DNA from: a phage
Reading direction: 5' to 3' (one strand)
Sequence record: PZ534511.1
Length of the DNA stretch: 64,000 nucleotides
Positions 60,400-61,211 of this stretch are shown here, in pieces. The position numbers were made by a program, and so were the translations under genes. How positions within the stretch are numbered: the stretch's first letter is position 1; the number at the start of each line of letters is the position of its first letter. Below the pieces are notes generated by a model that was given only the letters and a program-made list of their open reading frames with translations, made no database searches and was not told the DNA's origin.

Positions 60400-60474
60400 T
60401 GGTGGCCCTGGGTGGAATTGAACCACCGTCTGGCGATTATGAGTCGCTTGCTTGAACCTTCCAGCTACAGGGCC
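60400..60474 (-). tRNA. tRNA-Met or Ile2 (anticodon CAU)
   Basis: Acceptor GGCCCUG/CAGGGCC, anticodon loop CUCAUAA, T-arm GGUGG-UUCAAUU-CCACC, encoded CCA. Confidence 0.65.
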
Positions 60475-60551: not shown

Positions 60552-60556
60552 AAAAA

Positions 60557-60655
60557 GGTGCTAGGTGATGGAATCGAACCACCTATGTATTCAACGACTA
60601 CCTCGTCTATTTTCAGGATTAAAAATCCTCGCCCTTGCCAAAGGGCTTACCTAGC
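60557..60655 (-). tRNA. Atypical tRNA-like gene (about 99 nt; possible UUU anticodon; about 30-nt variable region)
   Basis: Perfect acceptor GCUAGGU/ACCUAGC, D-arm GCCC-UUUGGCAA-GGGC, T-arm GGUGG-UUCGAUU-CCAUC, but anticodon arm non-canonical and extra hairpin ACGAGGUAGUCGU; 3' CC only. Confidence 0.4.
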
Positions 60656-60753
60656 TCAGTATGTTGACCATGTTGCTAGTCGGCGATGACGACTGTAACA
60701 TTTGATAATCCGGTTCTGCTTCCGGCTTTCGCTTAATTACAAGGTCAACAATA

Positions 60754-61182: not shown

Positions 61183-61211
61183 ATATTACACTGTTAAGCA
61201 AAGTTTGTCAA
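61183..61211 (-). promoter_or_regulatory. Sigma70-like promoter (TTGACA-17-TAATAT) for tRNA cluster
   Basis: About 60 nt upstream of tRNA-Arg. Confidence 0.45.

Follow-up and report, generated by a model that had tools for sequence, protein, structure and literature searches.

A tRNA-like RNA family with differing anticodon-like loops in the tRNA clusters of Vequintavirinae phages

What kind of gene occupies positions 60557-60655 of the phage sequence record PZ534511.1, where 99 nucleotides (nt) resemble a transfer RNA (tRNA) in some arms and depart from one in others? An earlier note on the 64,000-nt window (the whole stretch of DNA that was analysed) had proposed a tRNA with an unusual variable arm, an interrupted or pseudo-tRNA, or a tRNA-like regulatory RNA. 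The size and position given there were confirmed, and the strand, on which the note was silent, proved to be the minus strand, the RNA running from its 5' end at 60655 to 60557. Public labels for the gene vary just as widely (tRNA-Pseudo, tRNA-OTHER, tRNA-Lys, tRNA-TERM, tRNA-???(atcc), 'hypothetical protein' or none). The window belongs to an rV5-like coliphage (Vequintavirus), the cluster region being 100% identical to that of Escherichia phage APECc02 and Shigella phage CM1. Our analysis indicates that the element is an undescribed tRNA-like RNA family, present once per genome and restricted to Vequintavirinae. Read on the minus strand, its segments are, in order, GCUAGGU AA GCCCUUUGGCAAGGGC G AGGAUUUUUAAUCCU GAAAAUA GACGAGGUAGUCGUU GAAUACAUA GGUGGUUCGAUUCCAUC ACCUAGC A CC, and they are located as follows (bp, base pairs; MFE, minimum free energy).

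60557..60655, minus strand: whole tRNA-like gene (ARAGORN tRNA-???; Rfam tRNA 35.5 bits; covariance model R1 104.4 bits, E = 1.6e-23)
60649..60655, minus strand: acceptor stem 5' strand GCUAGGU, partner 60560-60566, 7/7 pairs standard in 25 copies
60647-60648, minus strand: A8 A9, preceding the D arm
60631..60646, minus strand: D arm GCCCUU-UGGC-AAGGGC, 6-bp stem and 4-nt loop in the MFE fold
60615..60629, minus strand: hairpin 1, anticodon-arm-like, AGGA-UUUUUAA-UCCU or AGGAUU-UUU-AAUCCU, covarying at 2/4 stem pairs
60608..60614, minus strand: 5' linker GAAAAUA, single-stranded (from alignment columns), GAAAA fixed in every copy
60593..60607, minus strand: hairpin 2, the extra or 'variable' arm, GACGA-GGUAG-UCGUU (MFE fold)
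60584..60592, minus strand: 3' linker GAAUACAUA, single-stranded, its AAUACAUA part fixed in every copy
60567..60583, minus strand: T arm GGUGG-UUCGAUU-CCAUC, 5/5 pairs standard in 25 copies
60560..60566, minus strand: acceptor stem 3' strand ACCUAGC (pairing test in 25 copies)
60557..60559, minus strand: discriminator A73 followed by CC; the next base is U and the terminal A is not encoded

The evidence that carries this assignment came from a pairing test of 23 pairs (seven in the acceptor stem, six in the D stem, four in hairpin 1, five in the T stem and the tertiary pair 19:56) over 25 distinct copies from at least five genera. Standard pairs were found in 575 of 575 cells and both-side changes at 11 of the 23 pairs. 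The covariation score was 0.436 versus 0.157 after shuffling, and none of 500 shuffles reached the observed value; sliding the 3' partners, as a control, gave 35-48% pairing. An alignment of 15 copies made with MAFFT only led to the same outcome. In the acceptor stem, both sides changed at pairs 1, 3, 4 and 6. The D stem did so at three of its six pairs, alternating between GCCCUU/AAGGGC, GCGGUU/AACCGC and GACCUU/AAGGUC, and the T stem exchanged G.U for G-C and U-A for C-G. The elbow pair 19:56, which links the D loop to the T loop, was GC in 16 copies and UA in nine; this switch from UGGC with UUCGAUU (G:C) to UGUC with UUAGAUU (U:A) argues for a true L-shaped fold. Hairpin 2 likewise displayed a compensatory A-U to G-C change in Av-05 and TH18.

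Conservation pointed in the same direction. Identity across genera, leaving aside the hairpin-1 loop and hairpin 2, was 85% for the element versus 78% for the adjoining tRNA-Thr. Among 11 variant copies within Vequintavirus, all differences kept the structure or fell in loops (G.U to G-C or the reverse, U-A to U.G or the reverse, A9G, the hairpin-2 loop and the 3' tail), and the UUU loop was constant. At the level of sequence comparison, the element was thus shown to be a selected RNA gene of the tRNA family. Decay was excluded because every helix is kept by compensatory changes across genera and because changes within the genus preserve structure or lie in loops. An antisense role of the fixed 3' linker was also considered and ruled out: complementary 9-mers were not in excess within the window (13 versus 15.6 expected), the sole exact match being the gene itself.

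The distribution of the family was narrow. By blastn, the version found in the window was present in 126 phage records, 123 of them with full coverage, and the Seunavirus version in 189, all of Vequintavirinae type in both cases. The genera concerned were Vequintavirus, Avunavirus, Seunavirus, Mydovirus and Henunavirus. An exact 25-nt pattern spanning the 3' linker and the T arm matched 12 viral and 18 metagenome contigs, and had no match in 185,579 bacterial and archaeal species genomes. The covariance model R1, built from 15 copies, scored members at 89-121 bits, one copy per genome, and ordinary tRNAs at 30 bits or less; a deletion remnant in phage V18 scored 34. No description of the element was found in a literature search.

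This remnant lies in a broadly degraded tRNA cluster (Escherichia phage V18, KY683736, 1376-1760 of our contig L002). A deletion of about 400 bp has removed tRNA-Ser and left the 5' half of tRNA-Tyr joined to what remains of the element, its 3' part; tRNA-Met lacks its first G and the anticodon arm of tRNA-Pro has been replaced. The whole tRNA cluster appears dispensable for isolate V18. Separately, 18 GenBank records numbered MG0656xx ('Campylobacter phage' C12, C14, A142 and others, with Campylobacter jejuni as host) contained a cluster 99-100% identical to that of rV5-like coliphages. Either their host and organism labels are wrong or the phage stocks were contaminated, probably.

How far does the window copy resemble a canonical tRNA? 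Most of what the earlier note had read from the letters was recovered. The acceptor stem has seven pairs and the D arm is perfectly paired, with six bp and a 4-nt loop in the MFE fold. The T arm does have five bp, yet 'perfect' overstates it, one of them being a G.U pair. Hairpin 1 can indeed fold in two ways, as six bp with a 3-nt loop (MFE) or as four bp with the loop UUUUUAA (Rfam tRNA alignment); it can also be read as five bp with a 5-nt loop, and it is bordered by an invariant G on either side (60630 and 60614). The additional stretch of about 30 nt amounts to 31 nt after hairpin 1, with a 5-bp hairpin inside it, and the encoded 3' end is A-CC followed by U, with only CC of the terminal triplet. 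The MFE was -34.2 kcal/mol (z = -3.66), and none of 200 shuffles folded equally well. Covariance-model scoring, which had been suggested as a check, placed the element above the gathering score of 29 for Rfam tRNA (RF00005), the alignment having 26 nt inserted in the variable region, and gave no Rfam match with intron models.

Features of RF00005 that are present include the 7-bp acceptor stem, the 5-bp T stem with its 7-nt loop and the 19:56 elbow pair. The core was compared with the canonical one (U8, a 3-4-bp D stem with a 7-11-nt loop carrying A14, R15 and A21, nucleotide 26, a 5-bp anticodon stem, a 7-nt loop and U33). It departs from it by A8 in every copy, by the 6-bp D stem with 4-nt loop and by the lack of nucleotide 26 or 27. 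A canonical tRNA should also keep its anticodon constant among orthologues; here UUU, UAU, UCC, GCC or UCA is found on one and the same body. This body forms a five-way junction, in which the 31-nt variable region consists of two A-rich fixed linkers around a replaceable hairpin. Of the identities first proposed, a tRNA with an unusual variable arm or a tRNA-like RNA is therefore upheld, as a selected L-shaped tRNA fold in which 31 nt separate the anticodon-like arm from the T arm. An interrupted or pseudo-tRNA is not, since the additional sequence belongs to the variable region, includes fixed linkers and accompanies helices maintained by compensation across genera. The analysis spoke neither for nor against a regulatory RNA.

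The loop of hairpin 1 and the 3' end differed between lineages as listed below.

Vequintavirus (window): hairpin-1 loop UUUUUAA; A73; CC only, or CA in two copies (contigs L007 and L042)
Avunavirus: hairpin-1 loop UUUAUAA; U73 or C73; ACA
Seunavirus and Mydovirus: hairpin-1 loop CC[A/C/U][U/G]CCAG; U73; CCA
Henunavirus and three deeper metagenomic lineages: hairpin-1 loop YAUCAAA; U73; CCA

U73 was found in every lineage but the Vequintavirus/Avunavirus clade. Three Mydovirus-type copies of 109 nt were identical but for loop positions 33 and 34, and two further copies carried independent changes at the same positions, CCA at 35-37 being constant. Hairpin 2 was replaced across genera by different hairpins of 13-25 nt, the whole variable region measuring 31-40 nt. 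Pair 3:70 was U-A, C-G or A-U among copies, and one lineage (L040) had A1-U72. The Seunavirus, Mydovirus and Avunavirus homologues had no Rfam match at E<0.01. An origin by duplication within the cluster was considered and set aside: the T arm agreed at 15 of 17 positions with those of tRNA-Tyr, tRNA-Ser and tRNA-Met, the acceptor stem at 5 of 7 at best (tRNA-Cys), and no clear donor emerged.

In Seunavirus and Mydovirus, the tRNA gene directly 5' of the element was itself unusual (1419-1494 in contig L001, 725-801 in L009, 727-801 in L011, L014 and L015). It has a conserved body, G73, CCA and a normal T arm, and its loops of 7, 8 or 6 nt lack U33 (ACGAUUC, ACAGAUCC and ACGAUA, respectively). 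ARAGORN called it Ile(gat), ???(agat) or ???(ga), and the gene is absent from the window. From its sequence, it looks like a second, putatively non-decoding tRNA-like gene beside the element.

In the window, the element is part of a tRNA cluster of one orientation, which ARAGORN ordered as Arg-Tyr-Ser-element-Thr-Met(CAU)-Pro. The tRNA-Thr gene starts 5 nt past the ACC of the element (60557-60559), and in other genera G1 of the element lies 2-7 nt past the CCA of the preceding tRNA. Judged by this spacing to adjoining tRNAs, the ends of the element coincide with tRNA-type processing boundaries. One further feature bears on its transcription.

61183..61211, minus strand: promoter-like sigma70-type site TTGACA-17-TAATAT (consensus scan, 10/12 matches), 5' of tRNA-Arg, the first gene of the cluster

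We infer that this strong promoter-like site may be the source of the element's transcript. The consensus scan also flagged a terminator-like structure formed by the T arm and the acceptor 3' strand (60562-60585, minus strand) and followed by CACCUUUUU. The U run at 60552-60556 occurs in the rV5 lineage only, and tRNA-Thr, tRNA-Met and tRNA-Pro come directly after.

Two neighbours in the cluster deserve mention. The tRNA called Met(CAU), at 60400-60474 of the window (minus strand), has a stem-loop, GCGACUCAUAAUCGC, identical to that of E. coli tRNA-Ile2 (CAU, lysidine) and unlike that of elongator or initiator Met; a BASEL record gives it as a tRNA-Ile reading ATA. It is probably an AUA-reading Ile tRNA and not a Met tRNA. 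The 98-nt spacer between tRNA-Ser and the element (60656-60753, minus strand) contains two small hairpins enclosed by a 7-bp closing repeat, GUUGACC...GGUCAAC. It had no Rfam match and its closing stem was not kept in the related contig L007; it may be the remnant of a lost tRNA-like gene.

What could such an RNA do? The element would be co-transcribed with the tRNA cluster; RNase P and 3' exonucleases would then cut it out, and the CCA-adding enzyme of the host would complete its 3' end. With a conserved body and an anticodon-like loop that changes from lineage to lineage, it can be viewed as a tRNA-shaped scaffold whose anticodon arm may act as an exchangeable specificity module. In the window, this module would be a canonical-looking Lys loop (U33, UUU, A37) that, together with A73, forms on paper an identity set for lysyl-tRNA synthetase, Lys identity residing in U34-U36 and A73 (PMC9976931). 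Host tRNA-Lys(UUU) is a recurrent target of E. coli tRNA nucleases, being cut by AriB of PARIS, by PrrC170 and by RorSlfn5, and infection can be rescued by tRNA-Lys genes of phages (PMC11464382, PMC11555353, PMC13056530). Additionally, phage MaxTheCat, nearly identical to that of the window, has genes for a phosphoesterase, a polynucleotide kinase and an RNA ligase (4150-6158 of contig L017), about 3.5-5 kb from its tRNA cluster. This set corresponds to T4-like tRNA heal-and-seal genes and is followed by a sirtuin-domain protein; in window coordinates it would lie at about 64040-66050, past the right end. Taken together, the Lys identity set, the targeting of tRNA-Lys(UUU) by nucleases and the MaxTheCat repair set led us to favour, tentatively, a counter-measure in a conflict over tRNAs. 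The element may be a non-standard stand-in for a host tRNA, either a nuclease-evading surrogate tRNA-Lys(UUU) or a nuclease decoy; plain codon supplementation seems less likely.

Two arguments were dropped while this reading was assessed. The 4-bp anticodon stem was once taken as proof that the element does not decode; genuine E. coli tRNA-Thr(CGU) has four bp as well, and a Sec-like D arm combined with a long variable arm, as on allo-tRNA bodies, is compatible with translation in E. coli (PMC5389517). The view of hairpin 1 as a mimic of the host tRNA-Lys stem-loop ('10 of 11') was abandoned after comparison with 42 E. coli tRNAs.

Several observations weigh against a stand-in role. In that same comparison, hairpin 1 without its triplet matched Phe and Cys at 11 of 14 positions, Leu(UAA) at 10 and Lys at only 8, and the scaffold GGAUU-NNN-AAUCC is generic. 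The loops of other lineages have 6-8 nt or carry A or C at position 33, so that the family as a whole does not consist of normal decoders, and in Avunavirus the UAU loop, U73 or C73 and the degenerate ACA end fit no identity set. In the window copy itself, the MFE fold shuts the hairpin-1 loop to 3 nt, nucleotide 26 or 27 is absent and the CCA is incomplete. The element was lost in phage V18, although the whole tRNA cluster of that phage is degraded. No partner protein was found beside the cluster, the six flanking open reading frames corresponding to families of unknown function or to a helix-turn-helix protein, and the literature search returned no expression, aminoacylation, cleavage or phenotype results on the element.

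Other explanations can be set against this one. It is possible, if on the unlikely side, that the element is a non-translational tRNA mimic, which the ribosome does not use although it is processed and may be aminoacylated. Its role could then be to donate an amino acid, to act as a sponge of toxins that modify charged tRNA (TacT/AtaT-type acetyltransferases, for example) or to regulate a tRNA-binding factor. In most lineages G1-C72, C2-G71 and U73 occur together, which among the 42 E. coli tRNAs is the case in tRNA-Gly only. The Seunavirus/Mydovirus type even fixes the whole set U73, G1-C72, C2-G71, C35 and C36 by which glycyl-tRNA synthetase (GlyRS) recognizes its tRNA in E. coli. Its loop keeps C35, C36 and A37 while position 33 (A, C or U) and position 34 (U or G), both of which matter to decoding and neither to GlyRS, vary freely, a pattern expected if GlyRS identity is selected but decoding, which calls for U33, is not. 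TacT-type toxins read U73 and G71, and the neighbouring tRNA of these genera also has 6-8-nt loops without U33. However, the Gly match is partial, since pair 3 is not G-C, the L040 lineage has A1-U72, A36 is present in Henunavirus and nothing fits in Avunavirus. In the window copy the identity has changed to A73 and UUU, in a canonical 7-nt loop with U33, and the surroundings of the cluster yielded no tRNA-dependent transferase or similar partner. Rather unlikely in our estimate is a related proposal, that the RNA would receive an amino acid from a host synthetase, stay away from the ribosome and act as a decoy or sponge for tRNA-directed nucleases or toxins, its arm being retargeted in each lineage. 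The corresponding assignment of targets may be doubted to the same degree: phages of Salmonella, Klebsiella and Cronobacter would have a Gly-like arm with free positions 33 and 34, coliphages a Lys-like one and Erwinia phages a UCA-like one. An ordinary, though oddly shaped, decoding tRNA-Lys(UUU) that supplements the AAA/AAG codons of the phage would agree with the tRNAscan-based label tRNA-Lys in several records, with the Rfam tRNA score above threshold, with the 7-nt loop, U33, UUU, A37 and A73, and with the ability of Sec-like bodies to work in translation. It is nevertheless quite improbable. Other genera put different and mostly non-canonical loops on the same body, and Lys decoding is therefore not the selected feature. 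AAA is a major E. coli codon already served by an abundant host tRNA, so that little would be gained by supplementing it. The CCA is incomplete, and the six tRNAs listed in the rV5 genome paper do not include the element (PMC3606486).

More improbable still is a purely cis-acting element of the precursor tRNA, a signal for processing, punctuation or stability with no role as a free RNA. The constant location inside a tRNA cluster, directly adjoining tRNAs, speaks for it, and the intact acceptor/T minihelix would attract RNase P; but the place in the cluster differs (after Ser here, after Thr or an aberrant tRNA elsewhere), and fixed linkers, an elbow pair and an encoded CCA in most genera exceed what a cleavage signal needs. 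A functionless, decaying pseudo-tRNA, as suggested by the labels tRNA-Pseudo and tRNA-OTHER in some records, the non-canonical anticodon arm, the incomplete CCA and the loss in V18, has very little probability left. It is effectively refuted by the covariation described above, with all pairs kept in 25 copies and 11 of them compensatory; the core is moreover better conserved than a neighbouring working tRNA, changes within the genus are without structural damage, and the gene is kept in essentially all rV5-like genomes (full coverage in 123 of 126 records). Least probable of all is an intron-interrupted tRNA, a selenocysteine tRNA (tRNA-Sec) or a stop-codon suppressor. Some records do label homologues tRNA-TERM or tRNA-sup(tca), the 6-bp D stem with tetraloop is a hallmark of tRNA-Sec, and the Henunavirus copies, with their CAUCAAA loop, had tRNA-Sec as best Rfam match (39.0 and 37.6 bits). 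Neither score reaches the gathering score of 47, the family divides its acceptor/T branch 7/5 and not 8/5, the discriminator is not G, A33 stands where UCA occurs and the window copy has no UCA at all. An intron is contradicted by the location of the 31 nt in the variable region, by the invariant segments among them and by their length, far below that of bacterial group I introns. There is no archaeal bulge-helix-bulge context either; removal of the 31 nt does not restore a standard core, and no Rfam intron match was obtained. Transfer-messenger RNA was likewise rejected: ARAGORN found none, pair 3:70 is never G:U, and the sole Rfam match related to it in the region scored 17 bits and lay elsewhere.

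The stand-in role that we tentatively favour touches on a wider subject, as phage tRNAs have lately been recognized as counter-measures to tRNA-cleaving immunity. To our knowledge, only canonical tRNAs have been implicated in such counter-measures so far. Here, a structurally exotic RNA of the tRNA family is kept by a whole subfamily of phages used in therapy and typing (rV5, PVP-SE1-like, Klebsiella, Cronobacter and Erwinia phages). If the decoy or sponge proposal were true, it would represent an RNA-based anti-defence factor and a new class of tRNA mimic. A fixed body with a swapped anticodon arm also amounts to a natural experiment on the features read by defences, synthetases and the ribosome. 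The family thus bears both on phage tRNA-mimic decoys and on the existence of a 7/5 relative of allo-tRNAs, and a family covariance model would end the inconsistent annotation of its members.

Comparison with described systems places the anti-defence tRNAs of phages among the relevant ones. The tRNA-Lys of T5 against PARIS, and those of SP15 and other phages against PrrC170, share with the window copy a Lys(UUU) loop and A73 encoded in a phage tRNA cluster, and changes in the anticodon arm are a known route to nuclease insensitivity. Outside the triplet, the stem-loop of the window copy departs from that of host tRNA-Lys at 6 of 14 positions, but it is not Lys-like in particular. They are, however, canonical 76-nt tRNAs with few substitutions in the stem-loop, whereas the body of the element is non-standard. 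They also rescue infection. The homologues of the element in other genera do not carry Lys loops. The species 1 and 2 RNAs of T4 (rnaC and rnaD) are small stable RNAs to which no function has been assigned, encoded, as is the element, in a phage tRNA cluster. Like the element, rnaC has a T-arm-like hairpin adjoining its terminal stem and additional internal hairpins, but at 139 and 119 nt both RNAs have another architecture. Homology was rejected, as R1 gave no match on either (contig L027) and blastn returned no T4-like phages (Tevenvirinae).

Class II tRNAs (Leu, Ser, Tyr) also possess an extra hairpin between the anticodon and T arms, and the T arm of the element agrees at 15 of 17 positions with the Tyr and Ser tRNAs of the cluster, which belong to this class, as it does with the Met tRNA. 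Their D arm is unlike the Sec-like one of the element, whose triplets are not those of Leu, Ser or Tyr. Class II variable arms measure about 13-21 nt with linkers of 1-3 nt, against 31-40 nt, with long invariant linkers, for the element. Closer in shape is tRNA-Sec (RF01852), which has the same 6-bp D stem and 4-nt loop, a large extra arm and a length of about 95-110 nt, and whose E. coli loop CUUCAAA is one base away from the CAUCAAA of Henunavirus. Identity with tRNA-Sec was rejected on the scores below threshold, the 7/5 split, the lack of G73 (A, U or C73 in the family) and of the U33 that tRNA-Sec has next to UCA; the window copy, with its UUU triplet, scored best with the general tRNA model.

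Allo-tRNAs are the closest described class (Mukai et al. 2017, PMC5389517), above all the allo-tRNA(UAU) species, which have a five-stem junction and are inactive in translation, and the 'irregular' tRNAs of polycistrons. They have in common with the element a Sec-like long D stem with tetraloop and a long extra arm, and, as in its family, diverse anticodons are found on a conserved body; the discriminator is G73 or U73 in allo-tRNAs and U73 in the family outside the Vequintavirus/Avunavirus clade. Some allo-tRNAs form a five-way junction, as the family does, some are inactive in translation and some are charged but unused; they occur in polycistrons, like the element, and also in phages. On the other hand, their 12-bp acceptor/T branch is split 8/4 or 9/3, while the element was 7/5 in 25 of 25 copies, and their anticodon stems are longer than the 4-5 bp of the family. 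Invariant single-stranded linkers of 7-10 nt on both sides of the extra arm are found in the element family only, which, unlike allo-tRNAs, is confined to one subfamily of enterobacterial phages. The presence of C2-G71 in the family makes serine identity unlikely, since this pair acts as an anti-determinant for seryl-tRNA synthetase. The element was not counted as a member of the allo-tRNAs because of its 7/5 split, its unique linkers and C2-G71; it was placed beside them, among non-canonical tRNAs and tRNA mimics.

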